A stretch of 32,000 nt of DNA from Kineococcus radiotolerans SRS30216 = ATCC BAA-149. Its GTDB lineage: Bacteria > Actinomycetota > Actinomycetes > Actinomycetales > Kineococcaceae. Of this stretch, positions 13,619 to 31,342 are shown piece by piece. Below the pieces are notes generated by a model, which saw only the letters and a program-made list of their open reading frames with translations, was not told the DNA's origin and made no database searches. How positions within the stretch are numbered: the first letter of the stretch is position 1; each line of letters starts with the position of its first letter. Location: contig NC_009806.1 in NCBI RefSeq assembly GCF_000017305.1, positions 120,001 through 152,000 on the forward strand, given 5' to 3'. The position numbers and the translations under genes are program-made.

Positions 13619-13625
13619 TGCAGTA

Positions 13626-15515: not shown

Positions 15516-15605
15516 GCTCGCCGGTAGTGCCTAGGGTCCCGCTGTTGCGCTGCTGGCGGGCTCGTTCACCTTTCCTCATCCACCTCTGTCAGCACTGGAG
15601 ACGAC

Positions 15606-16508: not shown

Positions 16509-16610
16509 TCGAGCAGCCGCGAGTCCTCACCTGGGCTCGCGGGGCCGGAGGCAACGGCGCATCCGGCCCTGGCGAACTCGGCCACGGCGAGCGAGAGGGG
16601 AGTGGCTTGA

Positions 16611-16634
16611 CCGGTGCAAGCGCTGCTTCACCGG
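16611..16634 (+). terminator. Possible terminator hairpin downstream of 15606-16508
   Basis: CCGGTG-C-AAGC gct GCTT CACCGG: a 10-bp stem with one bulge and no U tract. A weaker hairpin is CCGCGAG-N11-CTCGCGG at 16517-16541. Confidence 0.3.
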
Positions 16635-16876
16635 CGCCACTCCCAGTCGCTCTGACTACCCTCACGGGGTAGCCATTACCCTCCCAAGGTAGTGAAGACC
16701 CCCCATTCGGTGTAATACTCGCCCCCGTCCAGGCCCCGGGGGTGCCCGGTCGAAAGATTCCGGCGTCACCGGTCACACCTGATGGCCTGCCTGCACCTAC
16801 CGCAGTGAGCGGGGATTCCGGAGCAGCCTCCGGTCCAGAGCACGCTCGGCGGGAGGTGGAGAGGTGGAGCACGCAG

Positions 16877-17146
16877 GTGACGACAGGAGCCGCAGTGCTG
16901 CGGAGACCCCGAACGCCGCTGGCTACCCTGACCGCCGTGGTGGAGCCGTCTCGTACCGACTGGTGGCTGCTGGAGGACGTCGCAGTCTTCTTGGGCAGCT
17001 CCAAGAGCACGGTGACCGCCTACCGCTCCCGCGGGCAGCTTCCGGCGGCGGACACGACCTTCGGTCGATCCCCGGCCTGGCGCCCGCAGACGATCCGCGA
17101 TTGGGCTGCGCGCCGGCCCGGGCAGGGCTGGCGCAAGACCACCTGA
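16877..17146 (+). CDS. Excisionase/MerR-type helix-turn-helix DNA-binding protein (Xis-like)
   Basis: WWLLEDVAVFLGSSKSTVTAYRSRGQLPAADTTFGRSPAWRPQTIRDWAARRPGQGW fits the excisionase-family HTH pattern. The start is uncertain: the track ORF begins at 16742, and I prefer GTG 16877 (GGTGGAG 7 nt upstream). Confidence 0.55.
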   Translation: MTTGAAVLRRPRTPLATLTAVVEPSRTDWWLLEDVAVFLGSSKSTVTAYRSRGQLPAADTTFGRSPAWRPQTIRDWAARRPGQGWRKTT

Positions 17147-17199
17147 GCGCTGATCCCCAGCCTCATCCCGTCACGAGCGACTCGAGCGCGGCGCGCGCT

Positions 17200-17229
17200 G
17201 CACGTTACAGCTTTGGAGCTGTAACGTGC
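17200..17229. promoter_or_regulatory. Perfect 13-bp inverted repeat GCACGTTACAGCT-ttgg-AGCTGTAACGTGC (terminator or operator) 60 nt upstream of the Tad operon
   Basis: The arms were verified as exact reverse complements. The sequence is comparatively AT-rich for this DNA. It lies between the Xis-like stop (17146) and the lipoprotein start (17290). Confidence 0.5.
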
Positions 17230-17289
17230 GGAGTGAACACCCGGCGTCACTACCTTGCAGCTGCAGACGACCGATCCAAGGAGGACTCG

Positions 17290-17871
17290 ATGCAGCGCTT
17301 CACCACTTCCCGCCTGGCCGCAGCTTCAGCGGCCGTGGCGGTCCTACTGCTGGCCGGGTGTGGCAACAACGACGACATCGACTTCGGCAGCGACCCGCAG
17401 CAGGGGAGCAGCTCCACCAGCTCCCCGACCCCGAGCGTCGACACCGAGCAGCTCGAGCAGCAGAAGGTCCTGGAGGGCTACAACGCCTACTGGACGACCT
17501 ACGACGCAACGGCGGCACAACCGTCCCCAGACAAGGCGGTAGTCAGCCAGGCCCTGACGCCCGTGGCGGTCGACCCGGCCCTGGACACCTCAGTCAACGA
17601 CATCGTCAACGCCGCGCTGGCCGGCCAGAAGGCCTACGGCAACTACGTCGTGGACCCCAAGACCCCGGTCTTCCAGAACGAGGAGCACACCGAGGCCTTG
17701 GTCACCGACTGCATCGACTCCTCCCAGTCCGGCTGGGAGGACGCCACCACGGGTCAGAAGCTGACCGTCGGGGTGCCGGCCGTCTCCTCCAAGGCCACGT
17801 TGGTCAAGGGCGACGACGGCACCTGGCGGATGTCGCAGGTGACCTTCGACGACACGGTGACCTGCTCGTGA
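17290..17871 (+). CDS. Lipoprotein of unknown function, first gene of the Tad operon
   Basis: AAGGAGGA precedes the ATG at 17290. The signal ends in the lipobox LLLAGC. The track ORF from 16864 was trimmed. Confidence 0.85.
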   Translation: MQRFTTSRLAAASAAVAVLLLAGCGNNDDIDFGSDPQQGSSSTSSPTPSVDTEQLEQQKVLEGYNAYWTTYDATAAQPSPDKAVVSQALTPVAVDPALDTSVNDIVNAALAGQKAYGNYVVDPKTPVFQNEEHTEALVTDCIDSSQSGWEDATTGQKLTVGVPAVSSKATLVKGDDGTWRMSQVTFDDTVTCS

Positions 17872-18800
17872 GCGCCGTGGGACGCCGTCGTGGGCTCACC
17901 GCCGCCGCGGCGCTCGTCAGCACCCTCGTGGTCCTGCCGAGCGCCGTGGCCGACGACGGCGTCCCCCCGGTGGTCGTCAGCAACAGCCACGGTGGCGTGG
18001 GCACCACGGTCCATCAGACGGGCACGCCGGGGGGCTCGGGCAAGGCTGCCAACGGGGCGCAGACCGTGCGTGCTCGAGGTGCAGGCTCGACGTGCTCCTA
18101 CAACGACACCGTGGTGACCAGCACCGGGGGCACCGCGGTGACCCCGGCCGGTGCCGGACGCGCCAACGAGAACGCCGGTACCGGCCTGGTGGGGGACTCC
18201 ACCCAGGGCCGCTTCGTCACCCGCTTCTGCGGCGGGGCCTCCACCGTCATCTGGGTCCCCAACGGCGCTGTCGCTGGACCCGCGGGAGTTCCGACCGTGA
18301 CCCCGGAGATGCTCGCCCAGGACGCGCGCAACCTCCTGCCCATCCCCGTTCCCGCCTACGCCACCAACGGGTGGGGTCCCGGCGCCTCCCTGGTCAACAT
18401 GCCCACCTGGTGGTGGGTGACCAACGCCTCCGGGTCCCTGACCCAACGCACCAGCCTGGGAGCGGTGTGGGCGGAGGTGACCGCGACCCCGCTCACCTCC
18501 ACCTGGACCCCGAACACCCCCACCGACAACCCCGTGACCTGCACCGGCATGGGCATCGCGTGGCGGGACGGCATGAGCGAAGAGCAGGCCGGTCACTGCG
18601 CGGTCACCTACACCACCGCTTCCTTCCGGCGCCTGGCCGGAGCGGACCAGGCCTTCAACTCCCAGCTCAGCGTCACCTGGCGCGTGACATGGGTGGGCTC
18701 CGGCGGCACCGGCGGCACCCTCGCCCCGCTGTCGATGGACGCAGACATCCCCATGCAGGTCTACGAACGCCAGATCCTCAACAAGCCCCCCACTCCTTGA
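17868..18800 (+). CDS. Secreted protein of unknown function (Trp/Thr-rich C-terminal domain)
   Basis: The GTG start overlaps the lipoprotein stop (GTGA). Signal peptide: VSAVGRRRGLTAAAALVSTLVVLPSAVADDG. The track ORF from 17226 was trimmed. Confidence 0.75.
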   Translation: MSAVGRRRGLTAAAALVSTLVVLPSAVADDGVPPVVVSNSHGGVGTTVHQTGTPGGSGKAANGAQTVRARGAGSTCSYNDTVVTSTGGTAVTPAGAGRANENAGTGLVGDSTQGRFVTRFCGGASTVIWVPNGAVAGPAGVPTVTPEMLAQDARNLLPIPVPAYATNGWGPGASLVNMPTWWWVTNASGSLTQRTSLGAVWAEVTATPLTSTWTPNTPTDNPVTCTGMGIAWRDGMSEEQAGHCAVTYTTASFRRLAGADQAFNSQLSVTWRVTWVGSGGTGGTLAPLSMDADIPMQVYERQILNKPPTP

Positions 18801-18873: not shown

Positions 18874-19632
18874 ATGTCCTTGACCAAAGCCGCGCAGAAG
18901 ACGCCCAACGGCACCCCCACCGCGACCGCAGCTGCCCTCAAGGACGCCTCGACGACCCCGACCAAGGGAGCGTCCATCAGGGCCCGCAAGAGCGATGGGA
19001 CCCCGGCACGCTCGCGCCCTCAGACCAAGAGCAGCAGCCAGGCGAAGACGAACCGACCGATGGCCGCGCTCGCGGTTCTGATCATCGTCGGCTCGGCCAC
19101 CGCTGGGGCGGTGCTGTACTCCAGCGCCGGTGACCGTCACGACGTGCTCGCCCTGGCCCGCGACGTGCCCGCCGGACAGAAGATCACCGCGGAGGACCTG
19201 CGGGTCGCTGAGGTCAACGGGTCGGGCTTCTCCGCGGTCATCAAGGAGCACGCCGACCAGGTCGTGGGCTCGACCGCCATCTCGAGCCTGCCCGAAGGGG
19301 CCCTGCTGACGAACAAGATGTACCAGGACGACCCGATCCCCGAACCGGGCAACGTCATCGTGGGGGCTTCGCTGAAGCCGGGTTCGGTGCCCTCGGACGC
19401 GCAGCCCGGGCGTCGGGTGGCCGTCTGGAAGGTCGGCGTCGTCAACGGCAACGCGCCGGTCGCCGACGCCGAGCAGATCGTGGAGTCGGCGCTGGTGACC
19501 GAGGTGTCCACCGACGTCGCCGGCGGCAACACGCTGCTGTCGCTGGACCTGCCCCGCGACAGCGCCGCCGCGTACACCTCCGCCGCGGCCGCGGGCACCG
19601 TGGCCGTCTCGGTGCTGCCGGTGGGCTCCTGA
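18874..19632 (+). CDS. cpaB: CpaB/RcpC-like Flp pilus assembly protein (TM + SAF domain)
   Basis: AGGAG lies 6 nt upstream. TM: MAALAVLIIVGSATAGAVLY. The SAF-like segment is VLALARDVPAGQKITAEDLRVAEV...LPEGALLTNKM. Confidence 0.8.
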   Translation: MSLTKAAQKTPNGTPTATAAALKDASTTPTKGASIRARKSDGTPARSRPQTKSSSQAKTNRPMAALAVLIIVGSATAGAVLYSSAGDRHDVLALARDVPAGQKITAEDLRVAEVNGSGFSAVIKEHADQVVGSTAISSLPEGALLTNKMYQDDPIPEPGNVIVGASLKPGSVPSDAQPGRRVAVWKVGVVNGNAPVADAEQIVESALVTEVSTDVAGGNTLLSLDLPRDSAAAYTSAAAAGTVAVSVLPVGS

Positions 19633-20960
19633 TGGCCCTCATCGTGCTCGGGGCAGCCAAGGGCGCCCCCGGAGTGACCACGACGACCGCCGCCCTGGCC
19701 GCGGTGTGGCCGACCCCCGCGCTCCTCGTCGAAGCCGACCCCAGCGGGTCCGACCTGCAGCTGCTGGCGCGCGGGGACAACGGCCGCCACCTGCAGGGTG
19801 GTCAGCGCGGCGCCGGAGTCCTGGGTCTGGCCAGTCACGGCGGGAACCGCTCCACCCTCCTGAAGGAGCCCATCACCCAGAGCTGCGACCTCGGCGTGCC
19901 CGTGATCATCGGCCCCCCGCACCCGCGGGCCGCGCAGGCGATGGGGCCGGCGTGGAACCAGGTGGGCAACGCTCTGGCTCAGCTCTCCCGCGAAGGCGAG
20001 TTCGACGTCCTGGTCGACATCGGCCGCCTCGACGACGAGAGCGTCGCCCTGCCCCTGATCAGCCGTGCCGACGTCGTGGTGCTGGTGACCCGGCGCAACC
20101 TGCGTGGCATCGCGCACACCCGCCGAGTGGCCGCCATCGTCGAGGAGCAGCTGCGCCTGAACTCCGCCGCCGCTGCTGGCGCCACCCCGCGCCTGCTGAT
20201 CGTCGACGACCTCGACACCCCCAAGCGCGTCGAGACTCAGTGGCCCCTGGCCGCGCGGGGTCTCACCCACTCCTGGTCGATGCTGCCGCCGATCACCTGG
20301 GACGCCGCCGGAGCCCGCGACCTCTTCGACGCCACCGCCGCCCAGCGCGACACCAGCGCCTTCCTCACCTCCGTGCGCACCATCGCCACCGAGCTGCACG
20401 ACATCGCCCGGCACTTCGCCGCCCCCGCCGGCGGCGACGCCGCGCTCGGAGCCGCACCCGAGCTTCCGAGTCAGTCCGTCGCGCCGTCGCCGCAGGCCGT
20501 CACCTCCTCGACGACTTCATCGGGCTCCTCGACTCCTGCGGCCGCCGCGGAAGCGCTGGGCACCACCAAGGACCTGGGTGGGCACCCGGCATCTCCCGAC
20601 ACCGCCGGTCTGAGTCCGCTGCAGGTCGGCGCGGTGGGCCCCCCGGTTCCTGCCGGCGTGGTGTGGCCCCCGCTGCCGCCGTCGCGACGAGGAACGGCTG
20701 CCGGCTCGCACGCCAGCGACTTCGGCACCGACCTGGACGCCAGCCTGGAAGAGCGAGACCCGGCCAAGACCGGTGAGAACCCCGACTCCGCGAGCGCCAC
20801 CGAGGAAGACCCCGACTCCGCGAGCGCCACCGGCCCCAGCACCGACCCCAGCACCGACCCCAGCACCGCCCGCGACGAGGAGACGGCTCCTGATCCGGTG
20901 ACCGTCACGCACCCCCACCGTGATCCGCAGCTGACGAGCTCAGGAGCAGGACAGCGATGA
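19632..20960 (+). CDS. TadZ/CpaE-like ParA/MinD-fold protein with a degenerate Walker A, plus a repeat-rich acidic Pro/Ser/Thr tail
   Basis: IVLGAAKGAPGVTTTTAALA occupies the position of KGGxGKT/S, with no Lys after the second Gly. DVLVDIGRLDD is Walker-B-like. It sits between cpaB and tadA. Its ATG overlaps the cpaB stop by 1 nt. Confidence 0.65.
   Translation: MALIVLGAAKGAPGVTTTTAALAAVWPTPALLVEADPSGSDLQLLARGDNGRHLQGGQRGAGVLGLASHGGNRSTLLKEPITQSCDLGVPVIIGPPHPRAAQAMGPAWNQVGNALAQLSREGEFDVLVDIGRLDDESVALPLISRADVVVLVTRRNLRGIAHTRRVAAIVEEQLRLNSAAAAGATPRLLIVDDLDTPKRVETQWPLAARGLTHSWSMLPPITWDAAGARDLFDATAAQRDTSAFLTSVRTIATELHDIARHFAAPAGGDAALGAAPELPSQSVAPSPQAVTSSTTSSGSSTPAAAAEALGTTKDLGGHPASPDTAGLSPLQVGAVGPPVPAGVVWPPLPPSRRGTAAGSHASDFGTDLDASLEERDPAKTGENPDSASATEEDPDSASATGPSTDPSTDPSTARDEETAPDPVTVTHPHRDPQLTSSGAGQR
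20779..20869. repeat. In-frame repeats in the TadZ-like tail: a 24-mer ACCCCGACTCCGCGAGCGCCACCG twice at 30-bp period, then CCCCAGCACCGA x3
   Basis: Copies at 20779-20802 and 20809-20832, and the 12-bp units at 20834-20869. They encode PDSASAT x2 and PSTD x3. Confidence 0.9.
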
Positions 20961-22315
20961 CTCTTCAACCCCTCACCTCTGGCATCGAGCAGCTGCCCGA
21001 CACCTCCCAGGTCGTCGACTTCGCCCTGGTGCAGCGTCTGCGGACGACGGTGGCGGCCGGCCTGAACGCCGAGCGCCGGCGGCGAGCCGACGACGAACAG
21101 CTGCGGGAGATGACCAGCCAGGACGAGCTGCTCTTCGCTGACTCCCTGATCACCCGCAGCATTGCGGCGGAGAAGCAGGACCAGATGCAGCTCGGGCACC
21201 GCCTGACCGGGGAGGATGAGCTGCGCGCGGCCCTGCGCGCAGCGATCTTCGGTCTGGGCCGACTGCAGCCGCTGGTGGACAACCCCGCGCTCAGCGACAT
21301 CGCCATCAACGGCTGCGACCAGGTCTGGGTCAAGACCCTCAGCGGGCAGAAGCTGCGCGGTCCGGCCGTCGCGGAGTCCGATGAGGAACTCATCCAGTGG
21401 GTTCGTGACACCGCGACCTACAACGGGTTGTCGTCTCGTCCCTTCGACCCGGCCAACCCCTACCTGCAGATGCGCCTGCCCGGCAACCACCGCCTCACCG
21501 CACAGATGTCGACCTCGGAACGTCCGGTGGTCTCGATCCGCCTCTACCGACTGCAGTCGGTGCGCATGCACGAGCTGCACGCCCGGGGGATGTTCACCGA
21601 CCGCATCGGCGCTTTCCTGCACGCCGCGGTACGCGCCAAGAAGGCGATCATGCTGGTGGGGGAGACCGGCTCGGGCAAGACCACGCTGCTGCGGGCGCTG
21701 GCCAACGAGATCCCGGCCCGCGAGCGCATCATCACCATCGAGCACTTCCTGGAGCTGGGGTTGCCCCCCGAGCTGCACCCGGACCTGGTCGCCTTCGAGG
21801 AGCGACCCGCCAACGCCGAGGGCCTCGGCGCGGTGACCATGGAGGACCTGGTCATGAACTCCCGGCGCATGGACCCCGATCGGGTCATCCTCGGGGAGTG
21901 CATTGGGCCTGAGGTGGTCGCGCTGCTGGACTCCATCACCCAGGGCAACGCCGGGGGACTGTCCACGATCCACGCCCCCACCGCCCACGCGGCCATCGAC
22001 AAGATCGCCCTCTACGCGGTCAAGGCGCCCACGCCGCTGACGATGGAGGCGGCCAACATGCTGACCTCCATCGGGTTGGATCTGCTGGTCTTGGTGAAGA
22101 AGACCGAGCTGCCCGACGGCACCGTCCGTCGTCACGTCGCCAGCATCGTCGAGGTCGGCAAGTACGACGGGCAGCAGGTCATCACCAACGAGCTCTTCAG
22201 AGCGCCGACCGGCGCGGTGCAGGCCCTGCCCAAGGCCGCGCTGTCGGACGAGCTTCGCGAGAGCCTGAAGGCTGCCGGCTACGACGACAAGCAGTGGGCG
22301 CAGGACGCGCGATGA
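20957..22315 (+). CDS. tadA: TadA/CpaF pilus assembly secretion ATPase
   Basis: 452 aa. Walker A: VGETGSGKTTLLRAL. Typical CpaF stretches: RIITIEHFLEL, DRVILGECIGPE, GGLSTIHA. ATGA overlap with the upstream gene. Confidence 0.95.
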   Translation: MTLQPLTSGIEQLPDTSQVVDFALVQRLRTTVAAGLNAERRRRADDEQLREMTSQDELLFADSLITRSIAAEKQDQMQLGHRLTGEDELRAALRAAIFGLGRLQPLVDNPALSDIAINGCDQVWVKTLSGQKLRGPAVAESDEELIQWVRDTATYNGLSSRPFDPANPYLQMRLPGNHRLTAQMSTSERPVVSIRLYRLQSVRMHELHARGMFTDRIGAFLHAAVRAKKAIMLVGETGSGKTTLLRALANEIPARERIITIEHFLELGLPPELHPDLVAFEERPANAEGLGAVTMEDLVMNSRRMDPDRVILGECIGPEVVALLDSITQGNAGGLSTIHAPTAHAAIDKIALYAVKAPTPLTMEAANMLTSIGLDLLVLVKKTELPDGTVRRHVASIVEVGKYDGQQVITNELFRAPTGAVQALPKAALSDELRESLKAAGYDDKQWAQDAR

Positions 22316-23358
22316 TCGACCAGACCTTCCTGCTGGTCACCCTCGCCGGTCTCGTCTTCGGGTTGGGTGTCGTCCTGCTCGTGCTGGCCCTGCGCGGTCA
22401 GGGCGCCGGCGTTCGCCCACCGCGGGCCTTGCAGCTGGGTCATTGGCCGCGCGAGACCAGGATCCGCTGGGGCGTGGCGGTGGCCGGGGGGCTGCTGACC
22501 CTGCTGATCACCCGGTGGATCACCGTGGCGCTGGCCATCGCCGTGATCGCGGTGATGTGGCCGCGTCTGTTCGGCGGCGCGCGCAGTCAGGCTCGCCAGA
22601 TCCGCAAGCTGGAGGCGCTGGCCAGTTGGGTGGAGTCGTTGCGCGACACCATCAGCACCGGGCAGGCACTGCCGGAGGCCCTGCCGGCCAGCGCACTGAC
22701 CGCGGCCCCTGAGATCGCCGAGCCGCTGGCGAACCTGTTGGACCGCATGCGCGCGCGCCAGTCCCTGGACCAGGCGCTGCTGCTGCTGGCCGATGACCTC
22801 GACGATCCTGAGGCGGACAGCGTCATCGGCGCGTTGGCCATGAACGCACGGGTGCAGGGCAAGCGGCTCAACGTGGTGCTGACGTCGCTGGCGGAGTCGG
22901 CGCGCAAGCAGCTGACCATCCGCCGTGAGATCGAGGCCGGGCGGGCGAGCATGCGCCGCGGGGTGACGTTCGTGATCATCACCACCTGCACGCTGGTCAT
23001 CGGCATGACGGTCTTCAACCGCGACTACGTCGAGCCGTACTCCACCGTCACCGGTCAGATCGTCTTGGCCATCGTCATCGGGCTGTTCACCGCCGGCTTG
23101 TTCTGGCTGCGGCGCCTAGCCGACTTCGAGACCCGGCGCCGGTTCCTGGTGACACCCCAGACCACCTCGCAGGCGGCGGCTCAGTCCCTCCAGCCCGTCC
23201 CGTCGGCTCAGTCCGGGGAGCGAGCTGACGTGCGGGGCGCAGGCGAGGTCGACGTGGCCTCGTCCTTGGACCTGCCTTCGGCGCCGACGCTGGCTCCCGC
23301 CGGGGTCACCTCTGCCCCGACCTCCGCCTCGACCTCTGCCTCCGGAGGGACCCGATGA
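22312..23358 (+). CDS. tadB: TadB-like T2SS-F family inner-membrane platform protein
   Basis: ATG 22312 overlaps the tadA stop (ATGA). It has N- and C-terminal TM helices and a central cytoplasmic helical domain typical of the family, plus a low-complexity C-terminal tail. Confidence 0.8.
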   Translation: MIDQTFLLVTLAGLVFGLGVVLLVLALRGQGAGVRPPRALQLGHWPRETRIRWGVAVAGGLLTLLITRWITVALAIAVIAVMWPRLFGGARSQARQIRKLEALASWVESLRDTISTGQALPEALPASALTAAPEIAEPLANLLDRMRARQSLDQALLLLADDLDDPEADSVIGALAMNARVQGKRLNVVLTSLAESARKQLTIRREIEAGRASMRRGVTFVIITTCTLVIGMTVFNRDYVEPYSTVTGQIVLAIVIGLFTAGLFWLRRLADFETRRRFLVTPQTTSQAAAQSLQPVPSAQSGERADVRGAGEVDVASSLDLPSAPTLAPAGVTSAPTSASTSASGGTR

Positions 23359-24272
23359 CCGCGATGGTGCTGGTGGCCATGCTGCTGGCGGCGGGTCTGC
23401 TGCTGCTGGTGCGCGCGCTGCGTCCCTCCCAGCCTTCCCTCGGTGAGCAGCTGGCCCGCTTGGGCGCGCAGACCAGCTACGACGAGCGGTACCGGGCCGC
23501 GGCCAGCACCGCACGCTCGCACACCTCCAAGGCCCACCGGTGGCTGGCCCGGCGCCTGGCCGGCACCCCGGTCATGACCAGCACCATCGACGACAAGCTC
23601 AGCCGCGACCTGTCCCTGCTCAACGTCGACGCCGCCGCGTTCACCGCAACCCGAGTGGCCATGGTCGCGGCCGGGTTCCTCCTCGCTCCGGTCCTCTGCT
23701 TCATCGCCTTGGCCGTCACCGGTGGAAGCACTCCCGCGGTGGTGGTCCTGACCGTGACGTTGCTCGTGACGTTGGTGGCCTACGTGGTGCCGGCCCGGCG
23801 GGTGCACAGCACCGCGGAGTCGCGGCGCGCAGACTTCCGCGCCGCCATCACCTCCTACATGGACTTGGTGGCCATGCGCGCCGCGTCTGGGGCCGGCGCC
23901 TCCGAAGCCCTCGCCGACGCAGCGCGCATCGGACGCGGATGGCCTTTCGCGCGCGTCCGCCTGGCCCTGGCCGATGCGCGCATCAGCGGCTACACCCCTG
24001 CCCGCGCGCTGGGACGGCTGGGAGAAGAGATCGGCATGCACGAGCTGCAGGACCTCTCCGCGCAACTGCTGCTGGCCGACGCGACCGGCGCGCAGGCCGA
24101 GGTGACCTTGCGCGAGCGCGCTCGGTCGTTGCGCGATGCCCAGCTGGCGGTAGCCCAGGGCAAGGCCGGTGAACGCAGCCAGACGATGGTCATCGCGCAG
24201 CTGCTGCTGGCGTTGGGGTTCATGCTCTTCGTCCTCTACCCGCCGGTCTCGAACTTCATGACGGCGCTGTGA
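23355..24272 (+). CDS. tadC: TadC-like T2SS-F family inner-membrane platform protein
   Basis: ATGA overlap with tadB. Architecture is the same as TadB (TM, helical domain, C-terminal TM pair MVIAQLLLALGFMLFVLYPPV). Confidence 0.8.
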   Translation: MTAMVLVAMLLAAGLLLLVRALRPSQPSLGEQLARLGAQTSYDERYRAAASTARSHTSKAHRWLARRLAGTPVMTSTIDDKLSRDLSLLNVDAAAFTATRVAMVAAGFLLAPVLCFIALAVTGGSTPAVVVLTVTLLVTLVAYVVPARRVHSTAESRRADFRAAITSYMDLVAMRAASGAGASEALADAARIGRGWPFARVRLALADARISGYTPARALGRLGEEIGMHELQDLSAQLLLADATGAQAEVTLRERARSLRDAQLAVAQGKAGERSQTMVIAQLLLALGFMLFVLYPPVSNFMTAL

Positions 24273-24541
24273 TGAACCCGCCCACCAGGTCATCGACCAG
24301 GCAGCTGGCTAGGCCCCCGACCACGACACGACACGAACCCCGGCGTGCGCCCCGGTTCGTGCTCCGGTCCAGACCATCCCGTACGGGGCGCCAACCGCCA
24401 TCCCGGTCTCGACATCAACTCGGCGTTGTCCACAGCCTCGGCTGCGGCGATGGCCGTGATGACCACCTCGGTGATCTGCTCACGGAAGAGCCCCCAGTCC
24501 ACACCAGCCGCTCCCGCCGCACCGCATCCTCGGAGGAACCC

Positions 24542-24904
24542 ATGTCCAGCACCGTCCTCGACGCAACCTCGAGCACCAGCGCTGAGCTCACCACCGGCTC
24601 CGCCAGCGACTTCGCCACCGTCATCCGCTCCACGGGTTCCTCGGTGCCGACCCAGCGCATGACCCCGGCCGCGCGCGCGGTCCAGATGGCCCACCGGCTC
24701 ACCTTCCACCTGCCGGCGCTGATCGTCGTCGCCGCCGTGATGAGCCGCCTCGTGCAGGCTCCGCAGGAGCAGGACCAGGAGGAAGGCTTCTCAGTCGCGG
24801 AGTGGGTCATCGGTGTCGCCATCATCGCCGCGCTCGCCATCGCCGTCGGCGCCTTGATCACCACCAAGGTCACCGACAAGGCCAGCAGCATCAACCTGGG
24901 CTGA
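24542..24904 (+). CDS. flp: Flp-family pilin with an unusually long N-terminal extension
   Basis: The C-terminus EEG/FSVAEWVIGVAIIAALAIAVGALITTKV matches the Flp G/XXXXE[YW] processing motif followed by a hydrophobic helix. GGAGGA lies 5 nt before ATG 24542, and GC3 is high throughout 24542-24740. An alternative short start is ATG 24740. Confidence 0.7.
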   Translation: MSSTVLDATSSTSAELTTGSASDFATVIRSTGSSVPTQRMTPAARAVQMAHRLTFHLPALIVVAAVMSRLVQAPQEQDQEEGFSVAEWVIGVAIIAALAIAVGALITTKVTDKASSINLG

Positions 24905-24911
24905 GCTGCAG

Positions 24912-24939
24912 CCGTCGGGTGCCGAACGGCACCCGACGG
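24912..24939 (+). terminator. Perfect 12-bp stem / GAAC loop hairpin 8 nt after the flp stop (terminator or attenuator)
   Basis: CCGTCGGGTGCC gaac GGCACCCGACGG, verified as exact complements. There is no U tract, which is common in actinobacteria. Confidence 0.65.
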
Positions 24940-24963
24940 TCCCGTCCCGCCCCCGGATCCGAC

Positions 24964-25491
24964 ATGAAGGACGTCTCCATGTTCAGCACCTTGCACGCGA
25001 CGCGGCAGCGGTTGCGTTCGACCGCGCCGCGGTCGAAGGCCGCGCCGGCGGCCGTGTCGGCGAGCAGGGCCGAGCAGGACACGGAACGCCAGCCGGGGGA
25101 GGGCCGGGATCAGACCAAGGGTGAGGAGGGCTCCACCGCGGTGGAGCTGGTGATCCTGACCCCGCTGATGTTCCTGCTGGTGCTGCTGATCGTGCAGTTC
25201 GCTCTCTTCCTCCACGCTCGCCAGGTCGTCACCGCGGCCGCGGAGCAGGGTGTGCGCAGCGAGCGGTTGTCTCGAGCCGGTGGGGGAGAAGGTGCCCAGA
25301 CCGCGCTCGCGTTCGCGGCCCGTGTCGGCGGCAAGGCGGTGACCGGGGTCAATGCTCGGGTCGCGCGCGGGGCAGACGCGGTGACGGTCAACGTCAGCGG
25401 GGAAGGTCAGTCGATCATCCCGTGGATGCACCTGACGGTCACCGGGACCAGCAGTGGCTCGATCGACCAGTGGACCGGGGACGTGTCGTGA
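24964..25491 (+). CDS. tadE: TadE-like pseudopilin
   Basis: GSTAVELVILTPLMFLLVLLIVQFALFLHARQVVTAAAEQGVR is a classic TadE N-terminal domain. The start may instead be ATG 24979 (AAGGA 7 nt upstream). Confidence 0.85.
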   Translation: MKDVSMFSTLHATRQRLRSTAPRSKAAPAAVSASRAEQDTERQPGEGRDQTKGEEGSTAVELVILTPLMFLLVLLIVQFALFLHARQVVTAAAEQGVRSERLSRAGGGEGAQTALAFAARVGGKAVTGVNARVARGADAVTVNVSGEGQSIIPWMHLTVTGTSSGSIDQWTGDVS

Positions 25492-26018
25492 GCGACTTCC
25501 AGACGCGGTCTCACACGCAGACCCAGACACCGGCTCAGACGTCGGCCCAAGCGCATGCACGGGTCGGTGCCCTGGCGACCGCGCGGCGGGTGCTGAGTCC
25601 TCAAGGCCGATCCGAGGAGGGGGCGGGAATGATCGACCTCGTCGTCGTCACGCCCATCCTGGTGTCCATCCTGTTGCTGGCCGTGGGCCTGGGGCGGGTC
25701 CGCAACGCTGACCAGCTCGTGCGCTCGGCCGCGGAGGACGCTGCACGCGCAGCTTCCCTGCAGCGCACCGTCGCCGGCGCTCAGGCCGCGGCCGCCGACA
25801 CGGTGAGCAGCTCGCTGCAGTCCGCTCAGACGTCGTGCACCGGCGGGCCGGCGGTCTCCGTCGACATCAGCCGGTGGCGACCGGGAGGTTCGGTCAGCGT
25901 GACGGTCAGCTGCACCGCAGCCTTGTCGGACCTGACCGCTCCGGGACTGCCGGGCAGCAAGACGATGAGCGCGCGCGGAACCTCGCCCATCGACACCCGC
26001 CGGTCGGTCGCGACGTGA
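25488..26018 (+). CDS. Second TadE/TadF-like pseudopilin
   Basis: GTGA overlap with tadE. GAGMIDLVVVTPILVSILLLAVGLGRVRNADQLVRSAAEDAARAAS has the TadE-like layout. Confidence 0.7.
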   Translation: MSDFQTRSHTQTQTPAQTSAQAHARVGALATARRVLSPQGRSEEGAGMIDLVVVTPILVSILLLAVGLGRVRNADQLVRSAAEDAARAASLQRTVAGAQAAAADTVSSSLQSAQTSCTGGPAVSVDISRWRPGGSVSVTVSCTAALSDLTAPGLPGSKTMSARGTSPIDTRRSVAT

Positions 26019-26575
26019 ACCGCTGGCCATCGCCCTGGGCCGCGGCCAACAGCGTGAGTGCTGGTGCGCATCGTCTCGACGTCGTTGAGGTCATTGATGG
26101 CCCTGCCGTTCCTGCCGTCCCCGCTGGCCCCGCTGTCCCCGCCTCGAGGGCAGGTGCGGGGGAGGAGGGCTCGGCACTGGTGTGGGTGGTGCTGTGCCTG
26201 CCGATGCTCTTCGCCCTGCTCGGCCTGATCTTCGACGGCGGAGCGGCTATCGCTGGGGCTCAGCAGGCCGACAACGTCGCCGACCAAGCCGCTCGCGCCG
26301 GCGCGGACCAGCTCGACGTCAGCGCGGCGCGCTCGGAGCAGGCGTTGTTCGGTGGCGCCGACACCGCTCGGGCGTCGCGGGCGGCCTGCGAGTACGTGAG
26401 CGTCGCTCTACCGGGGGCGAGCTGCACGGTCACAGCCAACGCCGACACCGTCACCGTGGCCGTCGCCGCCACCGTCCCGGCGCAGTTCTTCGGGGTCATC
26501 GGCATCCACCAGCTGAGCATCGACGGCAGTGGGTCTGCCGACAGCCACACCGGTATCGACGAGGAGGTTCAGTGA
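26015..26575 (+). CDS. TadG-like pilus assembly protein
   Basis: GTGA overlap with the upstream gene. GSALVWVVLCLPMLFALLGLIFDGGAAIAGAQQADNVADQAARAGA matches the TadG/TadE-G-like N-terminal pattern. Confidence 0.7.
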   Translation: MNRWPSPWAAANSVSAGAHRLDVVEVIDGPAVPAVPAGPAVPASRAGAGEEGSALVWVVLCLPMLFALLGLIFDGGAAIAGAQQADNVADQAARAGADQLDVSAARSEQALFGGADTARASRAACEYVSVALPGASCTVTANADTVTVAVAATVPAQFFGVIGIHQLSIDGSGSADSHTGIDEEVQ

Positions 26576-29500
26576 TGAAGCAGGTCCGCGCAGTCCTGGC
26601 GGGGGTGGCACTGCTGGCTCTCGTCGCCGGCGTGCCGGTGCTGCTGCTCCACTTCGTCGGCAACCCGCTGCCGGCGTCGGTGCCGGACGTGTCGATGCTG
26701 CTGAACACGCAGGTCGACTCCACCTTCGTGATCAACACCTTCGCCGTCGTCGTGTGGTTGGCGTGGCTCAACTTCCTGGGATGCGTCCTGGTCGAGGCGA
26801 GCTCGGTCATCGGTGAACTGCGCGGGCGCCCCCGCGTCGGAGTGAGCATCCCGCTGAACTTCGGCGGGCAGCACGTCGCTCGCCGGCTGGTCATCACGGC
26901 GGTGGCGGGCATCGTCGGGGTCTCCGCACTGGGACCGACCGCGGCCATGGCCGCCACGCACACCACGACGACCTCTAGCGTCAGCGCGGTCAGCGCGGTA
27001 GGTACGGGGTCGCTGGGAGCGGTGACCACCGAGGCCTCCACATCGCCTGGCGGCGGTGCCGCGGCCTTGGCCGAGGTGGGTGCTCCGAGCGTGGATCCCG
27101 CCTCGCTGGGCGCTCCTGCTCAAGCCGCGCCGGGCGAGGCAGGAACGGCGCCTGCTGCCTCCTCGGTGCTTCCCACCTACGAGGTGAAGGGCAGTCCCGG
27201 CAACCACGACAACCTGTGGGACATCGCCGAGGTCCACCTGGGTGACCCGTTGCGCTGGCACGAGATCTGGGACCTCAACCACAACCACGTCATGAGCGAT
27301 GGGGACCGCTTCGAGCATCCCGAGATGATCCGGCCCGGGTGGGTCTTGAGCATGCCCGCCGACGCGGTGGACCTGCCCAGCATGACCGCCGCAGCTCCCA
27401 TGCCCGCGGTGTCAGCTCCTGACACCGGTGCAGGTGAGCAGGGCGGCCCCGCCACGCAGGAGTCTCCGTCCGCAGCAGATCAGGGCGCCGGCACCAGCAC
27501 GGGCGCGGACGCGGACGGGAACGGAGGAGCGGGGGCCACGAGGGCTTCGCAGGTCCCCTCGAGCCCCGCAGCTCAGCCCGCTCCGGCAGCCCCCAGCGCC
27601 TCGGCTCCGGCAGCCCCTTCCGCCTCTACCCCCTCACCCGCGACCTCCAGCAGCTCCGAGAGGGCAGCGGCCACGACGAGCTCCGCTCGTGATGCTGCTG
27701 CCAGCGATACCGCGGATGACGCGGTGGTCGACATGCGCACCGTCGGGGGGATCGGGCTGCTGCTGGCCTCCGGCCTGCTGGGCGCGGTGGCTCTGCGTCG
27801 ACGCCGGCGCGAAGTCCGGCGCCGGGCGGGGTTCCGCGCTCGCGCACCGCACGCGGCCGCGGCCGCGATGGAGACCGAGCTGCTGAGCCTGCACACGCCC
27901 ATGTCACTGGACCTCATCGACCGCGGTCTGCGCCGCCTGTCGGCCGACTTGGCCGAACAGGAGCAGCCCCTGCCGGGGATCGCCACCGCACGCCTGAACG
28001 GCGAAGGGTTGCTGCTCAGCCTCTTCGAGGCAGCAGAGCTACCCGCTCCCTGGGAGCAGGTGGACGACGAGGGGTTCGAGTGGCTGCTCAGCGGCGCGGC
28101 CGCGGCGGAGTCCGACGACGACATCGACGCTCGCGTGCCCGCACCGTGGCCGAGCCTGGTGACCCTCGGCTACGACGTCGACGACGCGCACCTGCTCGTC
28201 GACCTCGAGGAGCTGCTGGCTCTGAACATCGCCGCCGCCGACGAACAGCAGAGCCAGGCCATGCTCAACGCGTTGGCCCTGGAGCTGGCTACCACGCCGT
28301 GGGGCGCTGGCCTGCAGGTGACGCTGGTGGGCTGCTGCGAGGACCTGGCCGGTCTCGTTCCCGAGCGCATGCGCTACCTGCCGGATCTGCCGTCGCTGAC
28401 GCGCGAGCTGCAGCTGCGACGCAACGACGTGGCGCGGGTACTGGCGGAATCGGGTCTGGACGACGTCGCGCAGGCTCGCCAGGAGGTGGAGGCCGGCGAC
28501 GTGTGGTCGCCGCACATCATCCTGGTCGGTCACCCGCTGGACGCTGATGAGCAGGCAGCCATCGGCGAGCTGCTCAACGACCTGCCCCGGGTGGGCATCG
28601 CCGCAGTGACCACCGACACGGAGGGACTGGGGGAGTGGGGCCTGAGCGTCGACGTCACCGACCCCGCGTGGGCGGAGCTGACGCCGACCCGCACCCGACT
28701 GCGACCGCAGACGCTGGGCGGTGAGGACTACGACCTGGTCCTGCAGATGCTCGACTCCGCCGAGCAGGAGGCCAGCGAACCCGTCGAGTACGCCTTCGCC
28801 ACGCCCAGCACCGAACCCCACCTGCTGGGCAGCATCCCCGCCGTCATCGACCTCACCTCCTGGGACGAGGAAGAGGGGCCTGTCGCCGCTGGTCAGTACA
28901 CCGCCGCAGCGTCGGCCATGACCAGCTCGACGACCAACTCCACGACCAGCCCCGCTGCCGACGTCCTCGGCGAGGTCAGCGATGCCCACCCGGGCAACGG
29001 CTTCACCGGTGGCCAGGCGGCCGGTGGTGTCTTCGAGAGTGCGAGCGGTGACACGAACGGCGACCCGAGCGCGCACCGGGACTCGGACCTGAGCGGTGCC
29101 GCCACGGTGAACCGCGCGCCGGCACACGGGGCCGACCTCGAGGGCGACGCGGAAGCCTGCGAGGCAGCCGCGAACGTGCGCGCAGCTCAGCTGCTGCGTG
29201 AGGCCGGTTTCGATGAGCAGATGCCGCTGGTGCGGGTCCTGGGGCCGGTGGACGTCCAGCGCGATGGCCAGACCATGGAGCTGACCGGGCGGCGTCTGGC
29301 GCTGGGGGTCTACCTCGCCTTGAACCCCGGTGTGGGTTCGCGAGAGCTCATCGACGACTTCTTCCGTCAACGGACTGCTCCCACCACCCTGCACCCGCGC
29401 GTCACCGAACTGCGCAAGGCCTTGGGAACCCACCCTCACACCGGAGAGCAGCTGGTGCCCTTGAACTCCGACGCCGCGGGGTACCGACTCCACGAGTCGG

Positions 29501-29949
29501 TCCTCACCGACTGGGACCTGCTGCAGCGCCTGGCGGCCAGCGACGACATCGACATGCTGGAGGCCGCCCTGAGCCTGGTGCGTGGTGTGCCGTTCGCACG
29601 GGTCGGCAGCCGCGTCACGCGCTACTACGTCTGGACCGAACGCGTGGAGGGTGAGATCCGGCAGCTGGTGACCGACATCGCCGTGACCGTGGCCGTCCGC
29701 GCTCACGAGGCCGGGCAGTTCCAGCGAGCCGAGCGTGCAGCCGCGAAGGGGCTGCTTCTCGAGCCTGGACACGAGCAGCTGCGGCGAGTGCACTGGCTCG
29801 CTCTGGCGGCGCTGAACAAGCGAGAGGCGCTGCGTCACAGCGTGGAAGAGCTGACGCAGGTCAATGAGGAGCTCGGATGCGATGAGGACCCCGACACGGT
29901 GACCCTCATCGATCAGCTGCGCGCTCAGGGCGCGCTGCAGGCCGCGTGA
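26575..29949 (+). CDS. Large membrane protein: 3 TM, extracytoplasmic LysM, 4th TM, cytoplasmic central domain, C-terminal SARP-type winged helix + BTAD
   Basis: GAGGAGG lies 7 nt before ATG 26575. LysM-like: TYEVKGSPGNHDNLWDIAEVHLGDPLRWHEIWDLNHNHV...IRPGWVLSMP. TM4 GGIGLLLASGLLGAVAL is followed by RRRRRE. SARP-like: VRVLGPVDVQRDGQTMELTGRRLALGVYLAL...AGYRL...DWDLL, then a BTAD-like helical repeat. The track ORF from 26182 was trimmed. Confidence 0.8.
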   Translation: MKQVRAVLAGVALLALVAGVPVLLLHFVGNPLPASVPDVSMLLNTQVDSTFVINTFAVVVWLAWLNFLGCVLVEASSVIGELRGRPRVGVSIPLNFGGQHVARRLVITAVAGIVGVSALGPTAAMAATHTTTTSSVSAVSAVGTGSLGAVTTEASTSPGGGAAALAEVGAPSVDPASLGAPAQAAPGEAGTAPAASSVLPTYEVKGSPGNHDNLWDIAEVHLGDPLRWHEIWDLNHNHVMSDGDRFEHPEMIRPGWVLSMPADAVDLPSMTAAAPMPAVSAPDTGAGEQGGPATQESPSAADQGAGTSTGADADGNGGAGATRASQVPSSPAAQPAPAAPSASAPAAPSASTPSPATSSSSERAAATTSSARDAAASDTADDAVVDMRTVGGIGLLLASGLLGAVALRRRRREVRRRAGFRARAPHAAAAAMETELLSLHTPMSLDLIDRGLRRLSADLAEQEQPLPGIATARLNGEGLLLSLFEAAELPAPWEQVDDEGFEWLLSGAAAAESDDDIDARVPAPWPSLVTLGYDVDDAHLLVDLEELLALNIAAADEQQSQAMLNALALELATTPWGAGLQVTLVGCCEDLAGLVPERMRYLPDLPSLTRELQLRRNDVARVLAESGLDDVAQARQEVEAGDVWSPHIILVGHPLDADEQAAIGELLNDLPRVGIAAVTTDTEGLGEWGLSVDVTDPAWAELTPTRTRLRPQTLGGEDYDLVLQMLDSAEQEASEPVEYAFATPSTEPHLLGSIPAVIDLTSWDEEEGPVAAGQYTAAASAMTSSTTNSTTSPAADVLGEVSDAHPGNGFTGGQAAGGVFESASGDTNGDPSAHRDSDLSGAATVNRAPAHGADLEGDAEACEAAANVRAAQLLREAGFDEQMPLVRVLGPVDVQRDGQTMELTGRRLALGVYLALNPGVGSRELIDDFFRQRTAPTTLHPRVTELRKALGTHPHTGEQLVPLNSDAAGYRLHESVLTDWDLLQRLAASDDIDMLEAALSLVRGVPFARVGSRVTRYYVWTERVEGEIRQLVTDIAVTVAVRAHEAGQFQRAERAAAKGLLLEPGHEQLRRVHWLALAALNKREALRHSVEELTQVNEELGCDEDPDTVTLIDQLRAQGALQAA

Positions 29950-30896
29950 TGACCACTGCAGCGCTGGTGGCGCTTCCTCTCTACGCGACGCTCACACCGG
30001 CCCTGACTTCGTCGGTCGGGGGAGTGGGCCTGCTCGTGGGGGTGGCCGCAGCCGCTGCGGTGCTCGCCGGCGCCGCTCAGCCGTGGCTTGGACACCGCGC
30101 CGGCCTCCTCGGTCGACCTCACCGCGCAGGCGCGGCCGCGGTGACCGGGCTGCTGACCCTGCTGAGCTGCCTGGCGGTGGGCCAGCTCCGCCCGGCACTG
30201 CTGGCGACCGCGCTGACTGCAGCAGTCACCTACCCCCTCTTCACCGTCGATCTGAAGCAGAAGCGTCTACCGATCGCCCTGGTCCGCCCGGTCACAGGGT
30301 GGGTGCTGGTGACCCTCAGCCTCGACGCGCTGCTGATCGACGGCGGCGGGCGACGGATGGCGACGGCACTCGCGGGCGCGGTCGCGGGTGCAGTGGTCTT
30401 CCACGGCCTGCGGGTGATCTCCCGCGGGGGGATGGGCCGGGGGGACGTCCGCCTGGCCAGCCTCCTGGGTCTGCTCCTGGGGTGGTTGTCCCCGGCGACG
30501 GCGCTGCTGGGGTTGGCGTTGAGCTTCGTGCTGGCGGCCGCGGCCCTGGTGCCCTTCCTGCTCACCCACCGCCTCCAGCGACACACGAAGGTGCCGTTCG
30601 GCCCGTTCATGCTTGTGGGCGCGTGGACCGCGGTGGGGCTGCACGCCGTGGCATTTCTGTCGGCGTCGGGAGTGAGCTCGAGCTTCTCGCGCGCCACCGG
30701 CGTGATCGAGACCCTTTCCGCCTGGGCAGGCCCTGCTCTGCTGCTGACCGCACTCGCTGTGGCGGTGTGGACGACAAGGGAGGTGGCTCAGCGTGCCGGG
30801 GGCCTAGGCCCGGTGGTGTACCCGCAGCCGATGACGGCGACCGCGCCCGGCGTCGTGGTCAGAGAGGACGGTTGGCCGTGGCGCTCCTCTCGATGA
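29946..30896 (+). CDS. tadV: A24-family prepilin peptidase (TadV/CpaA-like)
   Basis: Multi-TM protein. Candidate catalytic Asp motifs are FTVDLKQKRLP and GGMGRGDVRL, with C-terminal VPFGPFMLVGAW. GTG 29946 or ATG 29949 overlaps the upstream stop. Confidence 0.85.
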   Translation: MMTTAALVALPLYATLTPALTSSVGGVGLLVGVAAAAAVLAGAAQPWLGHRAGLLGRPHRAGAAAVTGLLTLLSCLAVGQLRPALLATALTAAVTYPLFTVDLKQKRLPIALVRPVTGWVLVTLSLDALLIDGGGRRMATALAGAVAGAVVFHGLRVISRGGMGRGDVRLASLLGLLLGWLSPATALLGLALSFVLAAAALVPFLLTHRLQRHTKVPFGPFMLVGAWTAVGLHAVAFLSASGVSSSFSRATGVIETLSAWAGPALLLTALAVAVWTTREVAQRAGGLGPVVYPQPMTATAPGVVVREDGWPWRSSR

Positions 30897-30961
30897 CTTC
30901 GGGCTGGCTCCTCGAGCAGGCACCTGCACGCGATGTAGCCGCTACCCCGGCGACCCCAACG

Positions 30962-31057
30962 GCTCGCACGCAGGCTCGCACGCAGGCTCGCACGCAGGCT
31001 CGCACGCAGGCTCGCACGCAGGCTCGCACGCAGGCTCGCACGCAGGCTCGCACGCAG
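30962..31057. repeat. Array 3: 8 perfect units GCTCGCACGCAG plus one degenerate unit
   Basis: Counted directly. Same orientation as arrays 1 and 2. It starts 65 nt after the tadV stop. Confidence 0.97.
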
Positions 31058-31342
31058 GCTCGCGACGGCGCGATGCTGGAGCCCTTGAGGGAGTGGCGGC
31101 CGCACCACCACCTGGGCGCTGTCTCGGCCGAACCGCGGGCGAAGTGGTTGACTGTGTCCTCAACGCGACGTCACGCCCGCCGACCAGGCCAGCGACAGGT
31201 CAGGCGCGAAATCTTCTGCTGCGTCCTGTCACATGGGCGCTTGTGCAGGCACCTACCTGGACGTGAAGACCTACAGCCTCCGCCCTCCAGCTTCACCGCG
31301 CCCTGGATCCTCGCCGCGCCGGCGCCTCCAGCGTCATCCGTC

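Follow-up and report, generated by a model that had tools for sequence, protein, structure and literature searches.

The known regulators of the SARP family are soluble proteins that activate antibiotic gene clusters. In the known members (AfsR and EmbR, and also ActII-ORF4, DnrI and RedD), an OmpR-type winged helix and a BTAD domain form an N-terminal module that activates transcription from direct repeats, which it binds close to the −10 element and which have a spacing of 11 or 22 bp. ToxR, TcpP and CadC provide the precedent for a tethered activator: they are membrane-bound winged-helix proteins with an N-terminal OmpR-type winged helix on the cytoplasmic side, a single transmembrane segment (TM) and a C-terminal periplasmic domain, and a type IV pilus is among the targets of TcpP and ToxR. 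In FtsK, SpoIIIE, TraB and TcpA, as in EccC and EssC with their domain of unknown function (DUF), a RecA-type FtsK fold directly follows TM helices. FimV, HubP and TsaP are proteobacterial proteins associated with type IV filament machines; the outline of FimV/HubP is an external LysM domain, a TM, an acidic cytoplasmic region and a C-terminal TPR-like domain (PMC12918733). Here we analyze a gene of Kineococcus radiotolerans SRS30216, located in a 32,000-nt window (contig NC_009806.1, positions 120,001–152,000), whose 1124-aa product combines parts of all these designs. It is predicted to carry a complete SARP module as the cytoplasmic end of a wall-anchored membrane protein, and it is encoded second to last in a Tad pilus operon carried by an actinobacterial mobile element. 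All coordinates below are positions in the window, and residue numbers refer to this protein, which we call the target.

Like the SARPs, the target has an OmpR-type winged helix followed by a BTAD, and its family keeps the LxLVRGxPF motif and, for the most part, the Arg/Lys pair of the recognition helix. Unlike them, it carries the module at the C terminus of an integral membrane protein, its gene belongs to a pilus operon and not to a cluster of antibiotic genes, and the partner domains are a LysM and an FtsK-like pseudo-ATPase in place of NB-ARC/TPR (AfsR) or FHA (EmbR). One AfsR contact residue, R92, is a Glu in the target. With ToxR, TcpP and CadC it shares a winged helix tethered on the cytoplasmic side of the membrane and a part outside (in the target a putative sensor), but the order is reversed, and those proteins have no BTAD, FtsK-like domain or LysM. 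Its FtsK-like domain directly follows a TM as in EccC and FtsK; unlike theirs, it lacks a Walker A motif, is strongly acidic, stands alone with no active ATPase domains after it (EccC/EssC), and has a SARP module as its fusion partner, where the others have substrate-binding ATPase domains or an FtsK gamma domain. The external LysM, membrane span, acidic cytoplasmic region and C-terminal TPR-like helical domain recall FimV, HubP and TsaP, as does the association of the locus with a type IV filament machine. However, the target has four TMs against one in FimV/HubP, its cytoplasmic part contains folded FtsK-like and winged-helix domains, and its family occurs in monoderm Actinomycetota. No FimV-type match was found in the target with Pfam or NCBIfam, and its C-terminal helical domain is a BTAD placed after a winged helix. 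The likeness to ToxR-type activators and to FimV is one of logic and outline only, not of family membership.

The domains of the target became clear only through family profiles and structure prediction. Taken alone, its sequence gave no significant match in Pfam, NCBIfam or the Protein Data Bank (PDB): LysM, Trans_reg_C and BTAD were all missed by Pfam, and no Pfam Tad family was matched, so that no homology to a named core Tad protein was seen. A database search returned 80 homologues of 850–1480 aa, many with precomputed LysM and/or BTAD matches. We built a family profile from 72 of these and scanned 48 members individually with Pfam. The profile matched four things in order, namely LysM, FtsK/EccC, OmpR-type winged helices and TPR-like repeats. 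The individual scans detected BTAD (PF03704) in 21 members, LysM (PF01476) in 16, Trans_reg_C in one and FtsK_SpoIIIE in none. To guard against circularity, we also scored the target with leave-out hidden Markov models (HMMs), built only from homologues with Pfam LysM or BTAD matches and excluding the target and its close relatives.

The SARP assignment is carried by agreement between fold and profile. The AlphaFold2 (AF2) model of residues 860–1124 reached a pLDDT of 94.6 and a pTM of 0.90. When the SARP module was searched with Foldseek, the six best PDB matches were all AfsR or EmbR and covered the whole module (AfsR in transcription complexes, E = 6.6e-8, 24%–25% identity over ∼265 columns; EmbR, E = 1.9e-6); later matches covered the TPR-like part only or the winged helix only. 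A profile of 27 C-terminal fragments aligned end to end with EmbR (residues 10–260, E = 2.6e-20) and AfsR (residues 21–268, E = 6e-14). Taken over this profile and the 72-sequence one, the winged helices of CadC, ToxR and TcpP were matched with E values of 7e-5 to 2e-3; for the 72-sequence profile the values were 2e-4 to 2e-3. Pfam BTAD was matched by 19 of these 27 fragments; the target alone fell below threshold, and it scored 150 bits over residues 880–1120 against the leave-out HMM from BTAD-positive homologues. By fold and by profile, residues 878–1124 (247 aa) are thus predicted to be a complete module of the SARP family. An earlier reading of the window, made by a model from the letters alone (hereafter the sequence-only reading), had proposed just such a C-terminal winged helix and BTAD, and the structural and profile matches bear this out.

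A cryo-electron microscopy study of AfsR names its DNA-contacting residues and describes SARPs as binding DNA as side-by-side protomers on direct repeats (PMC10936776). We mapped the contact residues, through an HMM alignment, onto 216 family members. The most strongly kept contact is R94, an Arg in 95% of the family (R947 in the target); its neighbor K95 is Arg or Lys in 58% (K948), and the target keeps this pair. The position of W74 is Trp in 69% of the family (F930 in the target), that of R92 is Arg or Lys in 68% (E945), and that of S91 is Ser in 62% (T944). At R87 the family has Asn in 41% and Arg in 15% (H940 in the target), and at T88 it has Thr in 23% and Ser in 16% (P941). Few family members have a Glu at the R92 equivalent. 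The family as a whole looks competent to bind DNA, and the recognition helix of the target lineage (...TLHPRVTELRKALG) is, on this alignment, an unusual one.

The central part of the protein was modeled over residues 410–770 from a 72-sequence alignment (mean pLDDT 88.6, pTM 0.85), with pLDDT values of 52–61 in the last ∼40 residues (∼730–770), where the linker starts. Foldseek matched the model in the PDB to the FtsK motor (E = 9e-9), the coupling protein TcpA of pCW3 (2.5e-8) and the ATPase domains of EccC and EssC, with a probability of 1.0 throughout and moderate TM-scores of ∼0.35–0.45. The family profile agreed, matching Thermomonospora curvata EccC (4nh0, E = 8.7e-6), the EccC5 DUF (9.6e-5) and FtsK (0.025). 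A profile of the central domain only matched the PDB weakly (E = 0.0096), and this alignment was used to place the P-loop position. In it, the family stretch LVTxGxDxxGxxxLVDLExxGxLxIxG aligns to VPIGLDADGRPLELDIKE...LCIGATGSGKSE of T. curvata EccC ATPase 1.

The nucleotide-binding motifs of this fold appear to be gone. The Walker A position reads G-D/P-P-x-x-x-R in the family and AAADEQQSQ in the target, and the pattern [AG]x4GK[ST] was found in the FtsK-like region of none of 225 members, which argues that the domain is a pseudo-ATPase. No conserved D-E or acidic pair follows the candidate Walker B strand (P-E/H-I-V-L-L-A/G-x-P, residues 646–654), a strand assigned by eye and not by superposition. 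The degenerate P-loop of the family, GDPxxxRxVLxALAxELA, closely resembles DGDPKAVYGMVRALIMQLA of the EccC N-terminal DUF domain, and the remnant looks most like this membrane-proximal DUF. The domain is also very acidic (net −44). An active DNA translocase was ruled out on the two grounds of the Walker A count and this charge. Models and alignments together indicate an FtsK/EccC-fold pseudo-ATPase, not a translocase. The sequence-only reading had raised, as a speculation, an FtsK/EccC-type P-loop domain with its Walker A replaced; the domain is there, but spans residues ∼431–745 rather than 560–760. The low-complexity linker that follows it in the target has a family-wide counterpart before the winged helix, with a median length of 64 aa and rich in A, P, D and E.

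Kyte–Doolittle hydropathy places four hydrophobic segments in the target, at residues 6–28, 50–72, 103–125 and 389–407, the last followed immediately by RRRRRE. The net charges (+2 for the N-terminal tail, −2 for loop 1, +1 for loop 2, −21 for the external segment and +9 for the juxtamembrane stretch past TM4) fit a topology with the N terminus inside, 263 aa in the external segment and 717 aa in the cytoplasm. The four-TM, N-in topology of the sequence-only reading is thereby upheld, and so is its order of parts; its lengths (280 aa outside, 650 aa inside) are corrected. In 190 of 198 family members, the region that separates LysM from the FtsK-like domain includes a hydrophobic 19-mer. The N-terminal three-TM module has invariant or near-invariant columns across the family (P21, W61, W64, E74, Q99, A102 and L105), and an HMM of this module alone finds most family members; compared with the PDB and Pfam, it matched no known family.

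The external segment is acidic and of simple composition (A+S+T+P+G = 63%), and within it lies the LysM domain. Here the family profile matched Kbp (E = 1.1e-11), TsaP (2e-8) and SafA (9e-4). The target alone matched NCBIfam LysM weakly (E = 0.076), and against the HMM of Pfam-LysM-positive homologues it scored 67 bits over residues 200–276. Invariant LysM positions are L214, A218, G223, I252 and P261. We conclude from these profiles that residues ∼200–262 are a LysM domain, predicted to be external and to bind peptidoglycan, in line with the external LysM-like motif proposed earlier.

The reading frame runs from an ATG to a TGA stop and is well supported as a gene. Its GC content is 75%, 52% and 86% at codon positions 1, 2 and 3; the excess at position 3 over position 2 supports the frame, and the pattern is what a real gene should show when the genome has 70% GC. 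A Shine–Dalgarno sequence (GAGGAGG) lies 7 nt 5′ of the start. At both junctions the gene overlaps its neighbor through TGATG, such that the stop of the upstream TadG-like pseudopilin gene meets the target ATG, and the target stop meets the ATG of the prepilin peptidase gene. These overlaps argue for co-expression of the target with the pilus genes. Pfam identified the neighbors on the same strand as SAF (CpaB/RcpC-like), CpaF (T2SSE), TadB and TadC (T2SSF), two TadE, Tad/TadG-like and Peptidase_A24, which confirms the placement of a 1124-aa protein inside a Tad operon made in the sequence-only reading. Gene calls on two other public contigs include a protein identical to the target, and its neighbors there are the same.

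The family is large and its architecture stable. A phmmer search of 1.84 billion cluster representatives with the central domain gave 1284 matches at E ≤ 1e-3, 799 at E ≤ 1e-10 and 160 at E ≤ 1e-30, corresponding to a family of ∼800–1300 clusters at 50% identity. The full order (three-TM module, one or two LysM, FtsK-like domain, winged helix, BTAD) was found in 123 of 148 new representatives, and all five modules in 198 of the 228 proteins collected. Most exceptions look like fragments truncated by contig ends, with a few distant members having no detectable central domain. By these counts, the modules evolve as one unit.

We then examined the gene context of relatives in one-genome-per-species contigs, searched with 12 closer sequences. 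The search found 273 stretches encoding a relative, with a best identity of 30%, and 80 loci were retrieved; all are from Actinomycetota except one metagenome-assembled genome (MAG) labeled Terriglobus and one unclassified bacterial MAG. Where the upstream flank measured 7.5 kb or more (62 loci), CpaF, TadB or TadC lies upstream on the same strand at conserved offsets in 59 loci (CpaF in 56), so that the co-occurrence with tad genes raised by the sequence-only reading does hold across related loci. The same gene order is seen in Cutibacterium acnes plasmid pIMPLE-HL096PA1, the conjugative linear plasmid pAL1 of Arthrobacter, a Pseudonocardia MAG and the chromosome of Aeromicrobium marinum. A tblastn search found homologues on 218 plasmid records, including those of Streptomyces (143), Rhodococcus (29), Curtobacterium, Cutibacterium and Micrococcus. 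At the DNA level, by contrast, 18 kb of the window compared with plasmids by megablast gave no meaningful match. Judged by this distribution, the target is an accessory component dedicated to one actinobacterial (single-membrane) Tad/Flp pilus subtype.

Two uncharacterized orthologues, PAGK_2369 (WP_015588743) of C. acnes pIMPLE-HL096PA1 and WP_011928069 of Arthrobacter pAL1, belong to the same family as the target and likewise lie after TadE/TadG-like genes in a Tad locus of the same gene order, with only ∼30% identity to the target. PAGK_2369 was tabulated with the Pfam domains "LysM, BTAD" by Kasimatis et al. 2013 (PMC3666418); the same table labels the C. acnes gene "TadB," a mis-assignment according to our analysis. 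In the literature, this table entry was the sole mention we found, and no recognition of the FtsK-like domain was found. The LysM or BTAD content of such proteins is already annotated in databases, and what is new is the putative SARP-type activator in a membrane-anchored architecture and in a new biological context.

Table 1. Features of the target gene and its surroundings in the 32,000-nt window. Bounds of the upstream Tad genes are from Pfam and from gene calls on an identical contig (L005).
Feature	Residues	Position	Strand	Basis or remark
LysM / pseudo-FtsK / SARP membrane protein, complete open reading frame (ORF)	1124 aa	26575..29949 (stop included)	+	GC at codon position 3, Shine–Dalgarno, TGATG overlaps
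N-terminal three-TM module	1-125	26575..26949	+	Hydropathy, conserved columns
Extracytoplasmic segment, carries LysM	126-388	26950..27738	+	Positive-inside rule, composition
LysM domain	∼200-262	27172..27360	+	Family profile, leave-out HMM
TM4 and RRRRRE, cytoplasm entry	389-407 and 408-413	27739..27813	+	Hydropathy, charge
FtsK/EccC-like RecA-fold domain without recognized nucleotide-binding motifs	∼431-745	27865..28809	+	AF2, Foldseek, profile
Degenerate P-loop position, AAADEQQSQ	553-561	28231..28257	+	Aligned to EccC Walker A GATGSGKSE
Acidic low-complexity linker between pseudo-ATPase and SARP module	746-877 (132 aa)	28810..29205	+	Net −16
OmpR-type winged helix-turn-helix	884-975	29224..29499	+	AF2, Foldseek, profiles
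BTAD (TPR-like, all-helical)	976-1124	29500..29946	+	Pfam on homologues, EmbR profile alignment
Upstream Tad gene block		18874..26575	+	Pfam, gene calls
SAF/CpaB-like		18874-19632	+	Pfam
Unassigned protein gene	442 aa	19632-20960	+	
CpaF		20957-22315	+	Pfam T2SSE
TadB		22312-23358	+	Pfam T2SSF
TadC		23355-24272	+	Pfam T2SSF
Flp prepilin (probable)	120 aa	24542-24904	+	
TadE		24979-25491	+	Pfam
TadE		25629-26018	+	Pfam
TadG-like		26180-26575	+	Pfam
Prepilin peptidase (Peptidase_A24, TadV-like)		29949..30896	+	Pfam; ATG overlaps target stop
Type IV secretion system (T4SS) module		2446-11704	-	Gram-positive type
NlpC/P60 and SLT wall hydrolase		2446-3681	-	T4SS module
Protein without Pfam match	777 aa	3685-6018	-	T4SS module
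VirB4-like AAA_10 ATPase		6015-9101	-	T4SS module
TcpC-like protein		10355-11704	-	T4SS module
12-bp tandem array		13626-14113	+	40.7 copies
12-bp tandem array		15354-15521	+	14 copies
12-bp tandem array		30961-31063	+	8.6 copies
Unrelated 12-bp array		9228-9354		10.6 copies
ParA/MinD-type ATPase gene		14134-15264	+	
Perfect 13-bp inverted repeat		17200-17229		At start of ORF 17226-18800
TACCCTC-N5/6-GGTAG, twice		∼16660-16720		Non-coding

The rest of the pilus locus has some features of its own. The probable Flp prepilin has no Pfam match and an unusually long leader of ∼85 aa before its G/FSVAEW processing motif. Between the SAF gene and cpaF, where one would look for TadZ, lies the gene for a 442-aa protein that likewise has no Pfam match; a relative occupies the same position in 51 of 62 related loci. 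Used as a plasmid-wide tblastn marker of this Tad subtype, the 442-aa protein gave one match and is too divergent for detection in this way. A ParA/MinD-type ATPase gene lies just upstream of the same Tad subtype in the window, in pAL1 (L087, 9267–10199), in the C. acnes plasmid (L001, 3031–3957) and in the Pseudonocardia MAG (L002, 1–938), and could be a plasmid partition ATPase or a functional equivalent of TadZ. In A. marinum (L004), an EccC-type FtsK_SpoIIIE gene (1489 aa, 12764–17233) and a WXG100 gene (19077–19373) directly follow the chromosomal Tad locus, so that a type VII secretion locus there adjoins a gene with an EccC-DUF-like pseudo-ATPase. In the window, a Gram-positive-type T4SS module lies upstream of the Tad genes on the other strand, and the C. 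acnes Flp-pilus plasmids show the same pairing of T4SS and Tad subtype.

The window also contains several repeats, two kinds of which the sequence-only reading had put forward as candidate SARP targets. Three 12-bp tandem arrays share an 8-bp core, GGCTCGCA, followed by four variable bases, and each fills a gap between plus-strand ORFs. Two of the gaps border the ParA-like gene on either side, and the third comes after the gene for the prepilin peptidase. Comparable arrays are missing from 87 related loci, which marks them as specific to this replicon and leaves their proposed role as SARP sites without support; they may be centromere or iteron sites. A fourth, unrelated array, with the unit CCGGTGAGGGGC, adjoins the VirB4-like gene. 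The perfect inverted repeat GCACGTTACAGCT-N4-AGCTGTAACGTGC, more AT-rich than its surroundings, did not hold up as a SARP target either, being a palindrome where SARPs bind direct repeats; it looks like a candidate operator for a dimeric regulator. Two copies of TACCCTC-N5/6-GGTAG, 20 bp apart and upstream of a small ORF, may form a second candidate operator.

What might the target protein do? Our best reading, which we hold tentatively and with slightly less than even confidence, is that of a wall-anchored, membrane-tethered SARP activator. Through its LysM, the protein would be anchored in the wall where the pilus machine sits or close by, and LysM would serve for attachment to peptidoglycan or for sensing it. 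The FtsK-like pseudo-ATPase would form oligomers beneath the membrane, probably rings like those of FtsK and EccC, and so gather several SARP modules, which the linker would allow to reach direct repeats in promoter DNA and to recruit RNA polymerase as AfsR does. Likely targets would be the tad operon itself, giving positive feedback because the target gene is probably co-transcribed with the tad genes, and possibly neighboring plasmid genes; output could depend on the status of the wall or the machine. We favor an activator because the SARP module is complete and its DNA-backbone contact residues are largely kept in ∼200 divergent members, because to our knowledge every characterized SARP activates transcription, because membrane-anchored winged-helix activators are established in ToxR, TcpP and CadC, and because the long acidic linker gives the module reach. 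Several observations weigh on the other side. Glu945 and His940, at the R92 and R87 positions, may alter or weaken DNA binding by the target itself, and the SARP module is mildly acidic (net −8) next to a strongly acidic FtsK-like domain. No exact 7-mer direct repeats at 10- to 12-bp or 21- to 23-bp spacing were found in four tad intergenic regions of the window, and in a crude test on related loci neither the regions after tadC (62 loci) nor those before the SAF gene (30 loci) showed an excess of 11- or 22-bp repeat spacings. The repeat-spacing spectrum of those regions shows a 3-nt periodicity only, which means that they are largely coding. The tad-1 and tad-2 clusters of Micrococcus luteus, which are required for natural transformation, have no target-type gene; the gene is hence no universal requirement and marks one Tad subtype. 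A literature search found no functional study of any family member. Finally, a structural subunit would just as typically show the gene position after the pseudopilins, the translational coupling, the LysM and the ring-type pseudo-ATPase.

The serious rival is a protein that serves the Tad machine of monoderms as a structural hub, much as FimV/HubP or TsaP do in their systems. Such a role is compatible with that of an activator, and we judge it the less likely of the two. LysM would then be the anchor, the three-TM module and pseudo-ATPase ring would dock to TadB/TadC/CpaF or to the SAF-domain protein, and BTAD and winged helix would serve as an interaction platform with vestigial DNA binding. 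Such a hub would suit the conserved place of the gene at the end of the pseudopilin genes and its translational coupling, the presence of TsaP, a LysM protein of type IV pilus machines, among the profile matches (2e-8), the FimV/HubP-like outline (PMC12918733) with a cytoplasmic isoelectric point of ∼4.1, and the resemblance of the pseudo-ATPase to the membrane-proximal EccC DUF, a scaffold domain in a secretion machine. The Tad subtype of the target also keeps a SAF/CpaB-like envelope protein. However, retention of the SARP module in ∼200 divergent members, with the recognition-helix Arg at 95% and other backbone contacts, is hard to explain without DNA binding, and we know of no SARP with a non-DNA role. 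The target also has no FimV-specific C-terminal motif or NCBIfam FimV match, and four TMs against the single one of FimV. Both functions at once would imply a peptidoglycan-anchored, FtsK-derived pseudo-ATPase ring at the Tad base, with tethered SARPs through which pilus or wall state gates pilus (perhaps conjugation) genes; we regard this combination as unlikely. More doubtful still, and in our view improbable, is a DNA-tethering or DNA-handling factor descended from an FtsK/TraB-type translocase, whose winged helix would bind repeated sites on the plasmid and so keep its DNA at the wall-anchored Tad/T4SS for conjugation, partition or uptake. The order of anchor, FtsK-like domain and C-terminal winged helix does parallel FtsK with its gamma domain and Streptomyces TraB; the locus adjoins a Gram-positive T4SS (VirB4-like, TcpC, NlpC/P60-SLT), as it does in the C. 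acnes plasmids; homologues lie on 218 plasmid records; and three intergenic gaps of the window hold 12-bp direct-repeat arrays with their 8-bp core. Yet with Walker A in 0 of 225 members the protein would be unable to translocate DNA, a domain of net charge −44 is unsuitable as a DNA pore, comparable arrays are missing from the 87 related loci, tad loci on chromosomes, for instance in Aeromicrobium, carry family members as well, and an OmpR/SARP winged helix with BTAD is the architecture of activators that recruit RNA polymerase. That the domain matches are chance similarities in a long, GC-rich, low-complexity ORF might be suspected from the blank single-sequence searches and from the ∼35% of the protein (external segment and acidic linker) that is of low complexity. 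This we hold to be extremely improbable and consider refuted, by two independent high-confidence AF2 models with specific fold matches, by leave-out HMM scores of 67 and 150 bits, by 799 cluster representatives matching the central domain at E ≤ 1e-10, by conserved synteny and by the codon-position GC that backs the reading frame.

The regulation of Gram-positive Tad systems and their anchoring in a thick wall are poorly understood, and the target protein is a concrete candidate for both. If hundreds of actinobacterial Tad loci encode a wall-anchored protein that ends in the cytoplasm with a complete SARP module, as predicted here, SARP biology would extend from soluble activators of antibiotic clusters to surface structures and mobile elements. 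The previously unannotated pseudo-ATPase domain would join the EccC DUF as another inactive FtsK-fold domain that sits beneath the membrane in an envelope machine, the second such case. The architecture would surprise specialists of both SARPs and type IV pili, and the family is a large one, present on plasmids of medical and environmental relevance: the Flp-pilus plasmids of C. acnes, Arthrobacter pAL1 and many Streptomyces and Rhodococcus plasmids. If the protein is structural and regulatory at once, it would represent a transcription switch coupled to a secretion machine and built from an inactivated DNA-translocase fold, and it would connect Tad pili with the transfer of plasmids in Actinomycetota, the acne-associated ones of C. 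acnes among them.

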